Of a stretch of DNA of 64,000 bases, positions 40,162-47,201 are shown piece after piece. The DNA comes from Bacteroidales bacterium (lineage in GTDB: Bacteria; Bacteroidota; Bacteroidia; Bacteroidales; UBA932). The number at the start of each line of letters is the position of its first letter. Positions within the stretch are counted from its first letter, which is position 1. A program made the translations under genes and the position numbers. Location: NCBI GenBank assembly GCA_045114175.1, contig JBGUJZ010000029.1, positions 24,223 to 88,222 on the forward strand. Reading direction: 5' to 3'. Under the pieces are notes generated by a model, which searched no databases, was not told the DNA's origin, and worked only from the letters and a program-made list of their open reading frames with translations.

Positions 40162-40317
40162 ATGCCTAGCGACCGCAACATCCTCCCCCTCGCCGACCTC
40201 CGCGTCACGGCCGACGGACTCGCCCCCGAGATGGGCGCGCTCCGCAAGGGATGCTACGCCCTGTTGCTGATCCTGCTCGCGCTCTTGGTCGCCCTCGCGT
40301 TCGCCTTTTATTTGTAA
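40162..40317 (+). CDS. 51-aa tail-anchored membrane protein; candidate immunity/accessory factor of the bacteriocin locus
   Basis: MPSDRNILPLADLRVTADGLAPEMGALRKG-CYALLLILLALLVALAFAFYL, a single C-terminal TM helix. The stop lies 5 nt before the PCAT ATG. The track starts it at GTG 40129. I prefer the ATG at 40162, which lies 20 nt after a near-consensus -7 box TTTCTTTG (40134..40141). Confidence 0.4.
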   Translation: MPSDRNILPLADLRVTADGLAPEMGALRKGCYALLLILLALLVALAFAFYL

Positions 40318-40322
40318 TAGCC

Positions 40323-42428
40323 ATGAGAACCGCCATCAAACAACACGACCTTTCGGACTGCGGCGCCGCCGCGCTCTGCTCTGTGGCACGCTATTACGGC
40401 CGGGACATTCCCCTGACCGTGATTCGCGAAGCCTCGGGGACGGACCGTGCCGGCACCACGGTCAAAGGGATGCTGGACGCGTGCCGCGCGATAGGGCTCA
40501 CGGGGCAGGCCTACAAGTCGCCCGACCGTGACGTGGAACCGCTGCGCAAACTGCACGTCCCGGCGATTCTCCACATGGTAGAAAAGAATGGCGACCTGCA
40601 CTACGTGGTGCTCTACAAAGCGGGGGCGAAACGGGTCCGCATCATGGACCCGGCCCTGGGTCGTCACCGCACCCTCTCTTACGATGCGCTCCGCAAGCGC
40701 TGGAGCGGCTTCCTGATTGTCATTTCCCCGGATCCCGGCAGTAAAATATCCCAACGTCCCACTCATCGGGACACTTCTTTCTTACAGTACACCCGCCTTA
40801 TTCTTTGCGTCAAAGAGGACTATCTACGGTCCCTGCCGGGATCCTTCTTATGCGTCATAGCAGGCATCACGACGTCGCTCTTCCTGCAGCACATCGTGGA
40901 TGTCGTCCTACCGGGCGGAAATGTCCGGGAACTGGCAGAAGTCTCGATCCTTCTGGCCTTGATCCTGGTCTGTTCCGCCCTTGTCGGTTACGGCAGTTCC
41001 CTCTTCTCGCTCCGGGCCAGCGTCCGGATGGATGGAACGCTGATTCTCAATTATCTAAGGCACCTGTTCAACCTGCCGGTGGGCTTCTTCCAGCGGCGGG
41101 GTGCGGGCGAACTGAATTCCCGCATCACGGATGCCTTCAAAGTCCGCAGCCTCCTCACCGAGGGGCTCACCGGCATCACGACAGGCTTGCTGCTGCTCGT
41201 CGGCTCCTTTGCCCTGATGTTTACCTTCTGGTGGAAACTGGCCCTGATGACGATGGCCTTCGTGCCGCTCTACATCCTGCTCTATCTGGCCGCCAGCCGC
41301 ATCACCCGGAAACGCAACCGGAAGTTGCTGGAGAGCGCCGCCGAATTCGAACGCAGCTCTGTGGAGAACATCTCCGCCATCCGCACCGTCAAATACTTCG
41401 GACGCGGCAATACGGGATACGGTGACCTGCAGCATGCCTTTGCCAACATGAACTGGAATATGTATCGCTCCGGACTGAGTTTGGGCCGGTTTTCACTCTC
41501 AGCTGACCTGCTGGCCAAGCTGATGACCCTCTCGCTCCTTTCGTTAGGCTCATTCTACGTGTTCCGGGGCGATCTTTCCACCGGCGAACTGGTCTCCTTC
41601 TATGCCCTTTCGGCGTGGTTTGCCACCCCGCTGGGCGAGTTGGTGGCCGTCTGCAACCGGATCAACGAATCCAACATCTCGCTGGAGCGACTGCAGGACA
41701 TCACGTTGCTCGAAGGGGAGCCCGAGGGCGGGCTGGAGACCCCGCTGGGTGAATCGTGGGACCTCACTTTCCGCGACGTCACCTTTGGCTATCCGGGCTG
41801 CAACCCGCTGCTGGAGCACTTCAACGCTACCTTCCCAAAGGGCACACTGACCGCCGTCACGGGCGAGAGCGGATGCGGCAAGAGCACGCTGGCCGCGCTG
41901 CTGATGCGGGACTATTCGCTGGCGGGCGGGCATATCCTGCTGGGCCAGACCGACATCGCGCTGATTGACCTGCAGCGCTGGAGAGAATACATATCGATCG
42001 TACCCCAGGATCCGGGGCTGCTGAGCTGCTCCATCCTGGACAACATAACCGGAGGGGATAAGGAGCCCGATTTGCGGAAAGTCGGGGCTATCCTGGAAGA
42101 ATTGCAGATGGGTGGATTCGTCACCTCGCTTCCCATGGGCATCCTGACCCCTGCCGGTGAACACGGAAGTCTGCTTTCGGGCGGACAAAAACAGCGGATT
42201 GCACTGGCGCGAGCCCTCTACAGGGATCCTCAGATCCTGATTCTCGACGAGGCCACGGCCGCACTCGACGAGGTCTCGCAACAGTGCATCCTGCGCAAGG
42301 CGGCCGCACTGCGGAATGAAGGGAAAACCGTCATCATGATCACCCACCGAAGGGACAATATCGCGATTGCGGACAGGGTGTTGGAGATGAGTCACGGAAC
42401 GAATGAAAAAGTGAGTGCGCGCTCATAG
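40323..42428 (+). CDS. Peptidase-C39-containing ABC transporter (PCAT, bacteriocin/double-glycine peptide exporter)
   Basis: I trimmed track ORF 40251..42428 to the ATG at 40323 (MRTAIKQHDLSDCGAAALCSVARYYG). C39 catalytic Cys (SDCG) and His (LHYVVL) are present. Six TM helices, Walker A GESGCGKST, signature LSGGQKQRIALARAL, Walker B ILILDEAT. Confidence 0.9.
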   Translation: MRTAIKQHDLSDCGAAALCSVARYYGRDIPLTVIREASGTDRAGTTVKGMLDACRAIGLTGQAYKSPDRDVEPLRKLHVPAILHMVEKNGDLHYVVLYKAGAKRVRIMDPALGRHRTLSYDALRKRWSGFLIVISPDPGSKISQRPTHRDTSFLQYTRLILCVKEDYLRSLPGSFLCVIAGITTSLFLQHIVDVVLPGGNVRELAEVSILLALILVCSALVGYGSSLFSLRASVRMDGTLILNYLRHLFNLPVGFFQRRGAGELNSRITDAFKVRSLLTEGLTGITTGLLLLVGSFALMFTFWWKLALMTMAFVPLYILLYLAASRITRKRNRKLLESAAEFERSSVENISAIRTVKYFGRGNTGYGDLQHAFANMNWNMYRSGLSLGRFSLSADLLAKLMTLSLLSLGSFYVFRGDLSTGELVSFYALSAWFATPLGELVAVCNRINESNISLERLQDITLLEGEPEGGLETPLGESWDLTFRDVTFGYPGCNPLLEHFNATFPKGTLTAVTGESGCGKSTLAALLMRDYSLAGGHILLGQTDIALIDLQRWREYISIVPQDPGLLSCSILDNITGGDKEPDLRKVGAILEELQMGGFVTSLPMGILTPAGEHGSLLSGGQKQRIALARALYRDPQILILDEATAALDEVSQQCILRKAAALRNEGKTVIMITHRRDNIAIADRVLEMSHGTNEKVSARS

Positions 42429-42483: not shown

Positions 42484-42675
42484 ATGGAAGAAAACTTGTT
42501 GCTGGAAACAGGATTGCGGGAGATGGATTCTTCCGAACTCATCCTGCGCGGAGGCGCATCAGGCGTTTGGGCCGATGTCTTTGCCAAAGCAAAATCGTTG
42601 ATCAACTTCATTGCCGATTACATTCCGAAGCTCGTCAAGGGCTTTCTGGATGGATTCGCACTTAAAATCTTTTAG
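42484..42675 (+). CDS. Double-glycine-leader precursor peptide A (63 aa: 24-aa leader, 39-aa core)
   Basis: MEENLLLETGLREMDSSELILRGG|ASGVWADVFAKAKSLINFIADYIPKLVKGFLDGFALKIF. I trimmed the track ORF (42415..42675), which overlaps the PCAT 3' end, to the ATG at 42484. The core is amphipathic, Cys-free and has net charge about +2, with a GxxxG motif (GFLDG). Confidence 0.7.
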   Translation: MEENLLLETGLREMDSSELILRGGASGVWADVFAKAKSLINFIADYIPKLVKGFLDGFALKIF

Positions 42676-42687
42676 GAGGAGCACGCC

Positions 42688-42861
42688 ATGAAACAGAACG
42701 CTCTCTCGCTCGCACTGGTGCCGATGGGCGCCGACGAGCTGTGCGCCGTTCGCGGCGGCGTGGACAAGCAGGCCCAGGAGGCCCTCTGGATGGTGGGCTA
42801 CGTGGTTGGCATCATCGCCAAGGTCTTCACTTCGCTCTTCTCCCTCATCAAAGGCTTTTAA
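42688..42861 (+). CDS. Double-glycine-leader precursor peptide B (57 aa: 24-aa leader, 33-aa core)
   Basis: Absent from the ORF track (<60 aa). MKQNALSLALVPMGADELCAVRGG|VDKQAQEALWMVGYVVGIIAKVFTSLFSLIKGF. The leader fits the E(-8) L(-7) x x V(-4) x G G consensus. The core has GxxxG (GYVVG). AGGAGGA lies 7 nt upstream of the ATG. Confidence 0.7.
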   Translation: MKQNALSLALVPMGADELCAVRGGVDKQAQEALWMVGYVVGIIAKVFTSLFSLIKGF

Positions 42862-42873
42862 GCATTTACTACC

Positions 42874-44175
42874 ATGACACTGGGAATAGTTCTGGCGGTT
42901 CTGGTGACCGCCGTCCCCGAATGGACGCTGGAAGGCTGCATCGAGCGCGGCCTGCAGGAGGGCGTCAGCCTGCAACGCCAGGAGCTGTTGCTCCGTCAGC
43001 GGCGCAGCGACGAGCGCCTGGCCCTGCTGGACGGTCTGCCGGAAATCAGCCTGCGCACGGGGTGCGACTTTGGTTGGGGCCGCACCGTGGATATGCAGGA
43101 ACTTATGATTGTGGACCATCGGCTCAACTTTTCCAACAGCTGGTCCGTGGGGGCCTCCCTCTCTTCCTCCCGCGTGGTTTCCACCCTGTTGGAGCAGCGT
43201 GAAAAACGCTTTCTCCGCCAGGAGGCGGCCGCCGGGCGGGAGGCGATGGAGACCGGACTGAAAATCGCCATTACCGAAGCCTATCTGGAGCTGTTGCTGG
43301 CCGACAAAAACTATGAAAACGCCTGCACCGGTTACGAGAGCATTTTGGCCCAGCGGGAACGGACCGAAAAAGAGGTTCGCTCCGGGCGGCTCTCCTACCG
43401 GTCGCTGGCGGAAATCGAGGCCCAGAGCGCCACGGAAAAGGCTGCAGTGGCCAGCGCCCGCGGAAACCGACGCACCGCCGCCATGAACTTATCCCGTTAC
43501 CTGAATCTGCCGCCGGAGGAGGAGCTTACGGTTGCTCCTCCGGCCGAAGATTCGCTGCCGGAACCCTGGCCGATGCCCTCTACCGGCGATATTGCCCGCT
43601 ACGTGGCCACCCATCCGCGCATCCGGCAGGCGGAAGCCTCGCTGGGGAACGGACAGGTCGGCCTGCGGAAGGAGCGGGCCTCCCTCCTGCCCGATCTGAC
43701 GGTGGCCGGAGGCTACGGCACCTACTACAGCAACGCCAGCCGGGTGACCTGGTACAACCAGCTGACCGGCAACGGCAACCCGTCGCTCGGCGTCACCCTC
43801 ACCATTCCGCTGCCCAGCGGGAACTCTTTCACGCGAATGCGGCAACGCGCCTCCGAGGTTTCGCAACAACAGTGCGAGATTGAGGAACTCCGCCAGGAGC
43901 TTGAATCCGAGATGCTTACCTCGCTGTTGAACGCCATCAACTGTTACGAAAGCTGTCTAGCCGCAGAGGAGAATATGAAAGCGCTGGGTACCGCATTCCG
44001 AGCCAATGAGGCACGCTTTGAAAACGGGGCCATCTCCAGTAGCGAGTACCTGATTTCCCGAACCAACTGGCAGAAGGCGGTCGGGGCCTACTGGCAAGCC
44101 CGCTACCGCTATCTGTTCCAGCTGAAAATCATCAGCCTGCGCAAGATTCCCGTGCAGGAAGGAGGTTCGCAATGA
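42874..44175 (+). CDS. TolC-family outer-membrane efflux protein
   Basis: 433 aa. N-terminal WTLEGCIERGLQEGVSLQ resembles the conserved start of Bacteroidota TolC-like OMPs. Two coiled-coil/beta repeat halves. Confidence 0.85.
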   Translation: MTLGIVLAVLVTAVPEWTLEGCIERGLQEGVSLQRQELLLRQRRSDERLALLDGLPEISLRTGCDFGWGRTVDMQELMIVDHRLNFSNSWSVGASLSSSRVVSTLLEQREKRFLRQEAAAGREAMETGLKIAITEAYLELLLADKNYENACTGYESILAQRERTEKEVRSGRLSYRSLAEIEAQSATEKAAVASARGNRRTAAMNLSRYLNLPPEEELTVAPPAEDSLPEPWPMPSTGDIARYVATHPRIRQAEASLGNGQVGLRKERASLLPDLTVAGGYGTYYSNASRVTWYNQLTGNGNPSLGVTLTIPLPSGNSFTRMRQRASEVSQQQCEIEELRQELESEMLTSLLNAINCYESCLAAEENMKALGTAFRANEARFENGAISSSEYLISRTNWQKAVGAYWQARYRYLFQLKIISLRKIPVQEGGSQ

Positions 44176-45374
44176 ATCCCAAATCCAAAAAGTGGATCCG
44201 CCGGGGGCTCATTGCCGGCGGCGTGTTGATCCTGTTTCTGCTCCTTGGCGGCCGCAAGCACAGCAAACTCCCCGAGGTGGAGGTGATGACGGTCACCTCC
44301 GGTGATCTGGTGGAGACCATTCCGGCCAGCGGCAAACTACGGCCCGTCACCGAGATTGCCGTTTCCCCGGATGTGTCGGGCGAGATTGTGGAGCTCAATT
44401 TCCGCGAGGGCGACCGGGTTCGCAAGGGCGACATTCTGCTGAAAATCAAGCAGGATCTCTATCTTTCAATGGTAGAGAAGGCCGAGGCGGCACTGGGGTC
44501 GCTCCGGGCGGAACTCAACCGCCAGCAGGCGGCAGCCAAGCAGGCCGCCACCGCCCTCACGCGGGCCAAATCGCTCTTTGCCCAACAGGCCATCTCCGCC
44601 TCCGAACTGGAGGCCGCACAGGCGGAATATGAGATGATGAACGGGCAGCTGAATGCCGCCCGGTGGAACGTGCGGAGCGGGGAAGCCTCCCTGAAGGAGG
44701 CGCGGGAGAACCTTACCAAAACCGTGATCCGCGCCCCGATGGACGGCACCGTTTCGCGCATGAATGTGGCCCTTGGGGAACGGGTGGTGGGCACCTCTCA
44801 GATGGCCGGCACCGAACTGCTGCGGATTGCCGATTTCAGCCAGATGGAGGTGGTGACCGACGTGGGGGAGAACGACGTGGTCCGGATTGCGCCGGGCGAC
44901 AGTGTTTCGCTCTCGCTGGATGCCTATCCGCGCCTGACTTTCAGCGGATTGGTGACACAAATCGCAAATTCATCGAAATTCGTTGCTGCAGGAATCGGGC
45001 AAGTTGCTAACTTTGAAGTCCGGATAGCGGTGCAGCCGGCCTCCTACCAGGCGCTGCTGCAAGACGATCCGACCCCGCTCAAACCCGGGATGTCGGCCGT
45101 TGCCTCGATCATCACGCGCTCCCGACGGGATGTCATTACCATCCCCCTCCAGAGCGTCTTTCTCCGAGGCAGACGGGAAGCCGTCTGGAGCGTCAGCGAA
45201 GCTGGCACCGTCACCGCCAAGGAGATTGAAACCGGCATTCAGGACCTCACCCGCATAGAAGTCCGCTCCGGGCTGGCCATCGGCGAAAGCATTGTCTGCG
45301 CCCCCTATCAGGCCATCACCCAAACGCTGACCGAGGGTTGCCGGGTCAAGATCCTGTCCGCAGAGAAACGCTAA
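44172..45374 (+). CDS. HlyD-family periplasmic adaptor (membrane fusion protein)
   Basis: 400 aa. N-terminal TM anchor, lipoyl/barrel-sandwich motifs (VSGEIVELNFREGDRVRKGDILLKI), a long coiled coil, and IRAPMDGTVS. ATGA overlap with the TolC-like gene. Confidence 0.88.
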   Translation: MNPKSKKWIRRGLIAGGVLILFLLLGGRKHSKLPEVEVMTVTSGDLVETIPASGKLRPVTEIAVSPDVSGEIVELNFREGDRVRKGDILLKIKQDLYLSMVEKAEAALGSLRAELNRQQAAAKQAATALTRAKSLFAQQAISASELEAAQAEYEMMNGQLNAARWNVRSGEASLKEARENLTKTVIRAPMDGTVSRMNVALGERVVGTSQMAGTELLRIADFSQMEVVTDVGENDVVRIAPGDSVSLSLDAYPRLTFSGLVTQIANSSKFVAAGIGQVANFEVRIAVQPASYQALLQDDPTPLKPGMSAVASIITRSRRDVITIPLQSVFLRGRREAVWSVSEAGTVTAKEIETGIQDLTRIEVRSGLAIGESIVCAPYQAITQTLTEGCRVKILSAEKR

Positions 45375-45384
45375 ACGAAAGACG

Positions 45385-46068
45385 ATGGAAAAACCTCGCA
45401 TCCTGATGATTGAAACGAGCACCGACAACTGCTCGGTGGCCCTTTGCCAAGGGACCGGCATCCTGGCCGAACGCCATACCGACGCCCCCAAAAGCCAGTC
45501 TTCCCTGCTCGCCCCCTTCGTGGAGGAGGTGCTGAAAGAGGCCGGCCTGAAGGCCAGCGAGTGTGACGCCGTGGCTGTCAGTGAGGGTCCGGGTTCCTAC
45601 ACGGGACTCCGCGTGGGCGTCTCCACCGCCAAGGGTGTCTGCTTCGGCGCGGGCATTCCGTTGCTGGCCGTGGGCACGCTGCGGATTCTGGCCGAGATGG
45701 GCCGCGGAAAGGCCGATTTCATTGTCCCGATGCTCGACGCCCGCCGCATGGAGGTTTACAGCGCGATATTCGACGGCAAGACGCTGGAACAGCAGACGGA
45801 GACGGAAGCCATCATCCTGGATGCGAACAGCTACGCCGACCTGCTCTCGCGCGGCACGGTGCTCTTCATTGGCAACGGAGTGGAAAAGTTTGCGCCGCTG
45901 GTCACTTCGCCCAACGCCACCTTCCAATCCTGCTGTCCGGAGGCATCCGCCATGGTCACCCCCGCCCTGGCGGGATGGCAAAAAAAAGAGTTCAAAGACG
46001 TTGCGTACTTTGAACCCTTCTATCTCAAGGAGTTTGTGGCCGGAATCAGCAAGAAAGCCGTTCTCTAG
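45385..46068 (+). CDS. tsaB: tRNA t6A37 biosynthesis protein TsaB
   Basis: 227 aa. ILMIETSTDNCSVAL and VSEGPGSYTGLRVG are YeaZ/TsaB motifs. Confidence 0.9.
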   Translation: MEKPRILMIETSTDNCSVALCQGTGILAERHTDAPKSQSSLLAPFVEEVLKEAGLKASECDAVAVSEGPGSYTGLRVGVSTAKGVCFGAGIPLLAVGTLRILAEMGRGKADFIVPMLDARRMEVYSAIFDGKTLEQQTETEAIILDANSYADLLSRGTVLFIGNGVEKFAPLVTSPNATFQSCCPEASAMVTPALAGWQKKEFKDVAYFEPFYLKEFVAGISKKAVL

Positions 46069-47201
46069 AGGCTCTTGCGAACCAGTGCTTCGAGCGCTGC
46101 GGCGTCGAAGAGATCCTTTCCAACGATATCTCCCTTACGGTCAATCACGAAGAGCGTAGGCAGCTGCGTGATGTTGTAGGCGGAAATGGCGCGGGAGTTC
46201 CGGCCATTGCCATCGTTGACGCTGATCCAGGGAATCTCCTGGTTGCGAACCACCGTTGCCCAGACCGCCTTGTCCACGTCCAGCGAAACCTGGTAGATCT
46301 CCAGGCCGCGGCTGTGGTACTTGGCGTAGAGGTCAGCCAGCGTATGGTTGAACATCTTGGGACCGTCCAGCGATACGCTCCAGAAGGAGAGGATAATCAC
46401 CGAGCCGGTCAGGTCGGAGAGCTTGCGCTCCTGACCCTCCAGATCGGGCATCGCCAGATCCGGGAAGGAGATGGTCTCCACGGCGTTCAGCTTGTTGTTG
46501 AAATCCAGCAGACTCTCACGCGACTTGATCTCTTCCGGCAGGGCCAGGACGTATTCCGAATTGGGATAAACCGGCTGGATGGAATCGTACACCTGCTTGA
46601 TAACCAGCACGTCCGTCAGTTCGCCGAAGACCGGCAGGTTCTCGTTGAACTTCTGGAAGAAGAGGGCTGCGGAGGTGATGGACTTGGGATGGGTAAGCAC
46701 GTGGCCCAGCGCAAAACGCTTGTAATCCACATAGACCCGGCCGATATCGGCGCGCAGTTCCTTGGCGGTGCGCTCGTCGGCAGCCAGGTTCAGGGCATCC
46801 GCACAGACGCCCATCTTGTAGCCGGCCAGACGGAACTCGTCGTTGACCTGCTTGAGCAGGGTGGATTCTTCGGAACCCTCCACGGTGTAGTCACCGTCGG
46901 ACTGCAGATTCACGCGAACCGCATCGCCCGGCAAGAGCACCAGCGAAGCCAGCGTCAGGCTGCCGTCGGAGAGGTGGCAGAAGACGGGGGCGCCCTTTTT
47001 CACCGCCACTTTGCCGCTGAAGTCACCCTTGGCGTCAACCTTCAGGGTATCCAGCGTAGTGAGCTGATTGGCAATCACTTTCTGCAGCAGCAGGGTGGTA
47101 TCGGAAAGATCCTCGCTGTGGCCTTCAATGCGGGCCGGATGGGTCTGGCTGCAGGCCGCAAAGGCGAGCAGCGCGAGGAGCAACAGTGCACTCTTTTTCA
47201 T
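46065..47201 (-). CDS. TlpA/thioredoxin-fold lipoprotein lacking the CxxC active site
   Basis: 378 aa. Lipobox LLAFAACS. The C-terminal thioredoxin-like domain reads ILSFWSVSLDGPKMF where TlpA proteins have FWASWCGPC. Confidence 0.8.
   Translation of the reverse strand: MKKSALLLLALLAFAACSQTHPARIEGHSEDLSDTTLLLQKVIANQLTTLDTLKVDAKGDFSGKVAVKKGAPVFCHLSDGSLTLASLVLLPGDAVRVNLQSDGDYTVEGSEESTLLKQVNDEFRLAGYKMGVCADALNLAADERTAKELRADIGRVYVDYKRFALGHVLTHPKSITSAALFFQKFNENLPVFGELTDVLVIKQVYDSIQPVYPNSEYVLALPEEIKSRESLLDFNNKLNAVETISFPDLAMPDLEGQERKLSDLTGSVIILSFWSVSLDGPKMFNHTLADLYAKYHSRGLEIYQVSLDVDKAVWATVVRNQEIPWISVNDGNGRNSRAISAYNITQLPTLFVIDRKGDIVGKDLFDAAALEALVRKSL

Follow-up and report, generated by a model that had tools for sequence, protein, structure and literature searches.

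The stretch of DNA analysed here, 64,000 nucleotides (nt) from a Bacteroidales bacterium (contig JBGUJZ010000029.1 of assembly GCA_045114175.1, positions 24,223 to 88,222), hereafter the window, raises the question of whether a 57-codon open reading frame (ORF), lodged among the genes of an export system, is a gene at all and, if it is, what its product does. We call this product peptide B and that of the small gene preceding it peptide A. In our analysis peptide B is probably a translated precursor with a double-glycine (GG) leader, one half of a two-peptide bacteriocin resembling class IIb, exported by an ABC transporter that contains a peptidase (a PCAT), a periplasmic membrane-fusion adaptor (MFP) and an outer-membrane efflux protein (OEP). 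Purifying selection, the conservation of the leader, the GG site and a GxxxG motif, and co-occurrence with peptide A and with intact PCAT, OEP and MFP genes are directly established. Cleavage, export, cooperation of the two peptides, antibacterial activity and immunity are what we infer from them.

Coding status of the peptide B gene

The peptide B gene occupies positions 42688..42861 of the forward strand, on which all genes of the operon lie, from an ATG at 42688 to a TAA at 42859-42861, and translates as MKQNALSLALVPMGADELCAVRGGVDKQAQEALWMVGYVVGIIAKVFTSLFSLIKGF. It comprises a leader of 24 residues (MKQNALSLALVPMGADELCAVRGG; 42688..42759), after whose G24 the C39 peptidase is predicted to cut, and a core of 33 residues (VDKQAQEALWMVGYVVGIIAKVFTSLFSLIKGF; 42760..42861 including the stop codon). 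Counted back from the cleavage site the leader has G-1, G-2, V-4, L-7, E-8, M-12 and L-15, and the core contains a GxxxG motif (G37-YVV-G41). The translation, the coordinates, the leader residues at -8, -7, -4 and -2/-1 and the motif all agree with the original prediction, which had also called the core a hydrophobic helix. The best 19-residue segment of the core has a Kyte-Doolittle hydropathy of 1.95, which is of transmembrane (TM) grade, and an AlphaFold2 model from 56 sequences (pLDDT 79.5) shows a short helix in the leader (15-21), followed by a break at the GG and one helix in the core (27-56; pLDDT above 90). For the predicted mature peptide we computed a monoisotopic mass of 3657.0 Da, a net charge of +1 and a GRAVY (hydropathicity) value of 0.92. 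The spacing is likewise as had been described, the peptide A gene stopping 12 nt before the ATG and the TolC-like OEP gene starting 12 nt after the stop, at 42874. A Shine-Dalgarno-like AGGAGG, read from the sequence at 42674..42679 of the same strand, overlaps the stop codon of peptide A and precedes the ATG of peptide B by 8 nt. In relatives the spacer between A and B measures 3-19 nt, and 7 of 10 lineages retain TAGGAGG or GGAGG in it.

Because 186 ORFs of at least 30 residues occur in 18 kb, the length of the peptide B ORF is uninformative. A strict GG-leader pattern, defined as hydrophobic at -12, acidic at -8, hydrophobic at -7 and -4 and then GG, N-terminal and in ORFs of 35-120 residues, occurs once in the window, in peptide B, against 0.2 +/- 0.46 expected from 40 Markov-1 randomisations. 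Taken alone, this uniqueness is suggestive only. The decisive evidence is comparative, from dN/dS (the ratio of nonsynonymous to synonymous substitution rates) and from retention across loci, and it identifies peptide B as a real gene under purifying selection. Against orthologues dN/dS is 0.14 at 93% identity, 0.18-0.21 at 75-78%, 0.39 at 60% and 0.27-0.46 in more distant lineages, and the sense frame has the lowest value of the six frames in all four pairs tested. The GC content of third codon positions (GC3) is 0.84 in frame versus 0.63 and 0.37 out of frame (PCAT, 0.76; OEP, 0.77).

Retention was assessed in loci ascertained through the PCAT only, by scanning metagenome contigs with ten PCATs aligned over their N-terminal 480 residues. 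This gave 38 loci with a PCAT identity of at least 31%. All 33 that have at least 1.1 kb downstream keep peptide A and then peptide B, intact and with GG in both; the five without peptide B are on contigs that end too early. The partner preceding peptide B in these loci always has 63-67 residues. PCATs at 24-26% identity belong to other systems, which are without peptides A and B. The pair is also kept in both of the named rumen metagenome-assembled genomes (MAGs) found through the PCAT and in all four contigs found through GreA. A scan of genome contigs with a single PCAT sequence returned only two true relatives, together with three unrelated matches to ABC nucleotide-binding domains; the broader sample of loci was obtained by looking up the peptides and by the metagenome scan. 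The original prediction had named, as the outcome that would count against it, a frame interrupted or absent where the transporter is kept; in each of these three sets (33/33, 2/2 and 4/4) we found frame and GG intact.

A look-up of peptide B returned ten clusters at 75-100% identity, some of them named 'hypothetical protein [Bacteroidales bacterium]'. Profile searches returned 13 at the 50% identity level among 1.84 billion representatives and at least 259 clusters at the 90% identity level in a set of 5.8 billion proteins. All family members have 50-65 residues and all come from Bacteroidales MAGs, with goat and sheep rumen, the horse-gut 'Candidatus Cacconaster' and digesters as sources. 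None carries a functional name or a Pfam or NCBIfam domain, and since neither collection has a model for the family, its annotation everywhere is 'hypothetical protein'. Among 56 members there is no variation at G23, G24, D26, A29, Q30, G37, Y38 and G41 and hardly any at E17, K27, A32 and L33, which gives the signature [leader]-E-x3-[VI]-x-GG before the cleavage site and [VIL]DKxAQxAL[YW]x[IV]GYxxG after it. Mean pairwise identity is 68% in core residues 1-17, 35% in the tail and 27% in the leader. The shortest members start exactly 15 residues before the GG (MRVLEIQEAALVWGG), the shortest leaders of the family being 15 residues long. NCBI, JGI, ENA and Logan data already list peptide B as a called gene (one entry reads 'hypothetical protein IJS91_03235 [Bacteroidales bacterium]'), so that the suggestion that automated calling could easily miss it holds only for the track with a 60-residue cutoff that was supplied for the original prediction.

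In the locus L062 (2393..2753), a far more distant system whose PCAT is 31% identical, an A-like and then a B-like GG peptide follow in the same order; the C-terminal GxxxG of the A type is kept (RGFKKGW), and AECIG replaces the GYxxG of the B type. This layout suggests that the two-peptide arrangement predates the peptide A/B family as defined here. In P0152, a member of the cluster of peptide B from one metagenomic contig, a sense codon replaces the stop of peptide A (compare 42673..42687 of the window), and the product is an in-frame A-EEGYA-B fusion of 112 residues, in which the second GG site is internal. In the window the two peptides have the same reading frame and lie 204 nt apart. A conserved in-frame readthrough from A to B was considered and rejected, as the two share a frame only in some lineages.

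Leaders, partner peptide and export genes

Among 20 non-redundant B leaders, position -15 is L, M or F and position -12 is I, M, V or L in every case, -8 is E and -4 is V, I or L in 19, and the GG is present in all; across the family GG is invariant (56/56). At -7, 14 of the 20 have A or S, and L is specific to the subclade of the window. This profile matches the classical double-glycine pattern. In the leader of peptide A the pattern is shifted one residue toward the GG (E-7, L-6, M/L-11, L/W-14). It is because of this offset that peptide B is the better leader fit, and the original description of it as the best-fitting GG-leader precursor is thus borne out, although best-fitting does not mean sole substrate. 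Some peptide A orthologues have a one-residue insertion that restores the E-8/L-7 register (SSELINVRGG, SSELQLLRGG), and some A leaders (among L037, L046, L050 and L052) end in GGG, as in SSELLLRGGG, which makes the cleavage register ambiguous. A profile-profile alignment (hhalign) of A against B gave a probability of 34%, with similarity in the leader only and with a one-residue gap. We considered the possibility that A and B are paralogues, but take the likeness, confined as it is to the leader, for a shared leader type and not for demonstrated homology of the cores.

The peptide A precursor (42484..42675, forward strand) has 63 residues, with the leader MEENLLLETGLREMDSSELILRGG and a core of 39 residues (ASGVWADVFAKAKSLINFIADYIPKLVKGFLDGFALKIF) that has a predicted mature mass of 4272.4 Da and a charge of +2, is amphipathic (hydrophobic moment, muH, 0.6) and contains an invariant GxxxG at G53..G57. 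Its homologues form 18 clusters, in which S16, S17, R22, G23, G24 and the motif NFIADY.PK..GF..G are invariant. It has a dN/dS of 0.07-0.30 and is present in all related loci, and AlphaFold2 predicts a helical core at 26-62 (pLDDT 65 overall, about 65-80 for the helix). The GxxxG is found in every B core (20/20) and every A core (18/18), the lineages being the unit of counting for A, and the cores are cationic to neutral and have no paired cysteines. Since it is present alongside peptide B in all loci, peptide A is, as far as its sequence and its constant company can tell, almost certainly a PCAT substrate too. In base composition the peptide A gene is markedly richer in AT, with a GC content of 47% and a GC3 of 0.58, against 61% and 0.76-0.88 elsewhere in the operon.

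The operon runs from a small TM protein through the PCAT, peptide A, peptide B and the OEP to the MFP, with gaps of 6, 55, 12, 12 and -4 nt. The PCAT gene (40323..42428, forward strand; 701 residues, starting MRTAIKQHDLSDCG) ends 260 nt upstream of peptide B. Its product matches the Pfam families Peptidase_C39 (7.7e-28), ABC_membrane (2.7e-47) and ABC_tran (2.9e-27), scores 1.8e-109 against the bacteriocin_ABC model TIGR01193, which is under the cut-off of that model, aligns over its full length to PCAT1 4ry2 (E=2.2e-96) and also matches ComA 8hf7. Residues Q7, C13, H93 and D109, the Walker A motif GESGCGKS, LSGGQ and ILDE (Walker B) are all present and are invariant in ten lineages. With its C39 triad and ABC motifs intact, the transporter is predicted to be catalytically intact. 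The ORF of 725 residues listed for it from 40251 reaches too far at its 5' end, running into the small TM gene; the conserved start is the ATG at 40323, which is the one called in all relatives.

The OEP gene (42874..44175, forward strand; 433 residues), which is present in all related loci, encodes a TolC-like protein with two repeats of the Pfam OEP domain (2.8e-35) and a match to TIGR01844 (2.5e-16). The MFP gene (44172..45374, forward strand; 400 residues) overlaps the OEP stop by 4 nt. Its product scores 6.5e-59 against TIGR01730 RND_mfp, 4e-43 against MacA, 9.4e-23 against the type I HlyD model and 1e-5 against bacteriocin accessory models, and has the Pfam domains HlyD_D23, HlyD_3 and Biotin_lipoyl_2. 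It is unusual for a PCAT to be paired with an MFP of the RND/MacA type. At the head of the operon, 40162..40317 of the forward strand encodes a small tail-anchored membrane protein of 51 residues from its ATG, in which MPSDRNILPLADLRVTADGLAPEMGALRKG is followed by a TM helix, and which ends 6 nt before the PCAT start. It has the motif [ST][DE]L.VT..GL.P followed by the TM helix, is called as a gene in public data and lies directly upstream of the PCAT in 9 of 10 lineages and in 30 of about 38 PCAT-ascertained loci. It has no PADLOC match and no family assignment, and from its sequence and position we regard it as a candidate immunity or accessory protein. Like the peptide B gene, its gene is shorter than the 60-residue cutoff. 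There are no modifying enzymes in the operon, and the peptides are therefore predicted to be unmodified. A scan for promoters and terminators gave counts no better than those of shuffled sequences, and upstream of the operon we found no TAnnTTTG motif of the Bacteroides type.

The best reading of these genes, by analogy with known systems, is that peptide B would be the beta-like half of an unmodified class IIb-like pair, which a diderm type I system would export in a single step. The 24-residue leader would fold into a short amphipathic helix, hydrophobic at -15, -12, -7 and -4 and with E at -8. The C39 cysteine-protease domain of the PCAT would bind this helix and cut after G24, and the hydrophobic helical core of 33 residues would pass through the PCAT, the MFP and the outer-membrane channel, crossing both membranes in one step. 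Peptide A would take the same route, being cleaved after its GG by the PCAT and exported. Outside the cell, the two unmodified helices may pair through the invariant GxxxG motifs in a target membrane, and would be membrane-active in the manner of class IIb. The 51-residue tail-anchored protein could serve as the immunity or accessory factor. The parts of this scheme differ in how strongly we hold them. On sequence evidence peptide B is very likely a real PCAT substrate that is cleaved and exported; that it acts together with peptide A is slightly favoured by the gene arrangement and the conserved motifs; and an antibacterial function, which is suggested by analogy, we would put at even chances.

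Chromosomal setting and vertical inheritance

The operon is embedded in housekeeping genes, with lspA, a dksA-like gene and ileS upstream and tsaB, a thioredoxin-like gene, HIT, greA and dnaX downstream. It lies at the same site, between ileS and tsaB and with the same gene order, in every lineage sampled, and its divergence runs in step with that of the flanking genes. From the nearest to the most distant lineage, identity to the window falls from 95 to 76% for IleRS, from 94 to 51% for the PCAT, from 95 to 48-55% for peptide A and from 93 to 33-42% for peptide B. No mobility and no presence/absence polymorphism of the operon was seen among the GreA-ascertained contigs. Because the same ileS-tsaB site is occupied across the whole lineage, the locus appears to be vertically inherited and not an accessory island.

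In all lineages whose PCAT identity is 53% or less, the operon is directly preceded on its own strand by a cvpA gene of the colicin V production protein family, PF02674 (L014, 4049..4534; L021, 2967..3467; L023, 2816..3301; L025, 2780..3265; and most of L031-L064). It is absent at the operon site in the subclade of the window, and none was found anywhere in the 64-kb window, so that this subclade seems to have lost cvpA upstream of the operon. In one further locus, L005 (1283..4291), ileS is cut to its C-terminal 242 residues and a gene of 662 residues without a Pfam match stands between ileS and the operon, which could be an insertion or an assembly chimera.

Known systems and rival explanations

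Class IIb bacteriocins are defined by two adjacent genes in one operon, GG leaders of 15-30 residues, a dedicated ABC transporter and helices with GxxxG (PMC2850506). The operon described here resembles such systems, for example lactococcin G and plantaricin EF/JK (PMC2850506), in having two neighbouring small-peptide genes in one operon, double-glycine leaders within that range (24 residues each), a dedicated C39-ABC transporter, unmodified helical cores of 30-40 residues that are hydrophobic or amphipathic, mildly cationic and furnished with a GxxxG each, and a small membrane protein encoded in the operon. It differs in several ways. Class IIb systems are Gram-positive, whereas the host here is a diderm Bacteroidales with an MFP and an OEP for export across two membranes, and peptides A and B have no sequence similarity to any class IIb family. 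The candidate immunity protein has only 51 residues and is encoded upstream of the transporter, and the locus is vertically conserved over the whole lineage rather than strain-variable, with a cooperation of the two peptides that is read from the genes.

Class II microcins are exported through a PCAT, an MFP and TolC (PMC12219008). With these microcins, such as colicin V with CvaAB-TolC (PMC12219008), the system shares a Gram-negative producer, an unmodified GG-leader peptide of less than 10 kDa and, as predicted from the presence of all three genes in the operon, PCAT cleavage during export via a PCAT, an MFP and a TolC-type channel. The microcin immunity protein is typically a small inner-membrane protein, to which the small TM candidate would correspond, and the link to colicin V extends to the cvpA gene directly upstream of the operon in most relatives, with none in the 64-kb window. 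However, microcins have one precursor where there are two here, E. coli uses a chromosomal tolC where the operon contains its own OEP gene, the microcin adaptor is of the HlyD/CvaA type where the MFP here is closest to the MacA/RND type, and microcin leaders have 15-18 residues, in comparison with 24 in the subclade of the window. Microcins that hijack receptors are also unlike the hydrophobic, TM-like core of peptide B, and the microcin hosts are Enterobacteriaceae, not Bacteroidota.

Pairing of PCATs with GG motifs has already been noted in Bacteroidales (PMC10352776; PMC6671954). The bacteroidetocins (PMC6671954, PMC8546649) are, like peptides A and B, small GG-leader peptides of Bacteroidales encoded beside a PCAT, which is required there for production. 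Their cleavage after GG was shown by mass spectrometry, whereas here it is predicted. A bacteroidetocin is a single mature peptide of 42 residues with four cysteines as disulfides, whereas here there are two peptides and no cysteine pairs, the cores of A and B in the window having 0 cysteines and any B core of the family at most one. The four-gene bacteroidetocin locus includes a thiol oxidoreductase and a 5-TM protein, neither of which is present here, where OEP and MFP genes are found instead. Bacteroidetocins further have leaders of 15-16 residues, BamA as target and no sequence similarity to peptides A and B. Membership in this group was therefore rejected, for want of cysteine pairs and of an oxidoreductase or 5-TM gene in the operon. 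Past tsaB, on the opposite strand, lies an AhpC/thioredoxin-like gene (46065..47201), but this is one of the flanking housekeeping genes and not part of the operon. Precursors of RiPPs (peptides synthesised on ribosomes and modified after translation) with GG motifs are also consistently paired with PCATs in Bacteroidales, some of the clusters having an MFP and an outer-membrane protein (PMC10352776). These clusters carry modifying enzymes (radical SAM, YcaO and others), and we rejected identity with them since the operon has none. The system thus appears to work like a class IIb bacteriocin on a microcin-type type I system, and there is no support for placing it in either class by homology.

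Among Bacteroidales, few peptide bacteriocins have been characterised, the bacteroidetocins being essentially the only class II example (PMC10352776, PMC6671954). The identification of the small ORF as a real GG-leader precursor is solid, yet unsurprising beside a PCAT. The notable parts are the two-peptide layout in a diderm, the register-shifted leader of the partner, the fixation throughout the lineage and the linkage to cvpA. To our knowledge, two-peptide bacteriocins have been described only in Gram-positive bacteria. We tentatively raise the possibility, which we consider doubtful, that this is the first class IIb-type two-peptide GG-leader system in a diderm, a core-genome pair and not an accessory weapon, fixed in the order ileS, cvpA, small TM protein, PCAT, A, B, OEP, MFP and tsaB and vertically inherited in a family-level lineage of the rumen, the horse gut and anaerobic digesters. 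If this is true, the ancestral linkage to cvpA might help to explain the long-unexplained role of CvpA in colicin V production. The clusters, at least 259 in number, form a large natural series for the recognition of leaders by PCATs, with a built-in comparison of two substrates shifted by one residue, and the operon would offer a testable case of a two-helix, GxxxG-paired toxin with one-step diderm export. The peptide family is abundant in rumen and hindgut Bacteroidales and could shape community structure. Its core-genome behaviour and the linkage to cvpA are unexpected, and prompt one to ask if systems of this kind are weapons in every case.

Several results weigh against a bacteriocin pair. 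Searches of the window peptide B against NCBIfam (E<=1) and Pfam, including models of the TIGR01847 / PF10439 type, gave no match, and among the 56 family members there were only sub-threshold matches, to PF10439 in three (E>=0.022) and to NF038167 in two (E 0.022). For both peptides, nothing reached threshold in Pfam, NCBIfam or PADLOC, and a profile search of PDB sequences with the two families returned only noise (E>=0.2). Foldseek, run on the PDB with the peptide B model, returned 0 matches, which for a single helix is to be expected; no characterised bacteriocin is matched in sequence or fold. The peptide B core has a net charge of only +1, and there is no recognisable immunity family and no regulator within the operon. 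The locus appears to behave as a core-genome operon, which is atypical, as bacteriocin loci are usually accessory and variable. The strongest conservation, in the N-terminal half of mature B (68%), points to a conserved partner and not to the diversification of an arms race. The support comes from genetic architecture and conservation, and the biochemical steps and expression are deduced from them.

It is because of this core-genome behaviour that a non-antagonistic role stays the main rival, even if we judge it unlikely. The pair would then be exported not as a weapon but for a physiological or signalling role throughout the lineage, such as a pheromone-like cue, an envelope or vesicle factor or a receptor ligand, and its export would be housekeeping. 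Such a role would fit the fixed ileS-tsaB site, where most lineages have cvpA immediately upstream, a divergence parallel to the housekeeping flanks (IleRS from 95 to 76% as peptide B falls from 93 to 33-42%), the lack of any operon-less strain among the GreA-ascertained contigs, selection that is purifying and not diversifying, the peak of conservation at core residues 1-17 of peptide B, and an operon in which no immunity gene family is recognisable. However, no sensor kinase or response regulator was found in or beside the operon, and hydrophobic or amphipathic GxxxG helices of 33-39 residues are the signature of two-peptide bacteriocins and are unlike the known GG-leader pheromones. The conserved small TM protein at the operon head suits immunity, and some bacteriocin loci, such as blp in streptococci, are conserved and chromosomal. 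We prefer the bacteriocin pair.

Alternatively, peptide B may not be exported at all but stay in the membrane, where it would serve peptide A, or else the transporter, as an accessory or immunity subunit, the GG being a structural glycine pair. Its core is hydrophobic enough for a TM helix, small TM immunity proteins are often encoded beside bacteriocin genes, and the position downstream of peptide A is a frequent one for an immunity gene. Yet the whole leader signature is kept over 20 lineages (E-8 in 19/20, and -15, -12 and -4 in 19-20/20) while the intervening residues are free (27%), the shortest members begin exactly 15 residues before the GG, which is the smallest unit that a PCAT recognises, the A and B leaders are linked by profile-profile alignment, and a separate conserved small TM protein already fills the immunity-like niche. 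This makes the subunit reading improbable. Least credible of all is that the peptide B ORF is a chance frame, the shadow of another gene or no gene. The window is GC-rich and has many spurious ORFs, as the count of 186 in 18 kb illustrates, and an antisense ORF of 186 residues (42559..43119, reverse strand) spans peptide B, part of peptide A and the start of the OEP gene. The antisense frame across peptide B is open in 9 of 10 lineages, with the second-lowest dN/dS (0.19-0.54). The sense frame, however, is the lower in each of the four pairs, and the open antisense segment ranges from 31 to 261 residues, has boundaries that differ among lineages and crosses two intergenic spacers of variable length. 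This is what is expected of a mirror frame that stays open because it shares its wobble positions with the GC3-rich sense frame, and we rejected the antisense ORF as a gene. An invariant GG and GYxxG, 259 clusters of constant size and a constant place after the PCAT would be impossible for a non-coding spacer, and the sequence comparisons effectively refute a chance or shadow origin. A list limited to ORFs of at least 60 residues would nevertheless show the antisense 42559..43119 in place of the real peptide B gene.

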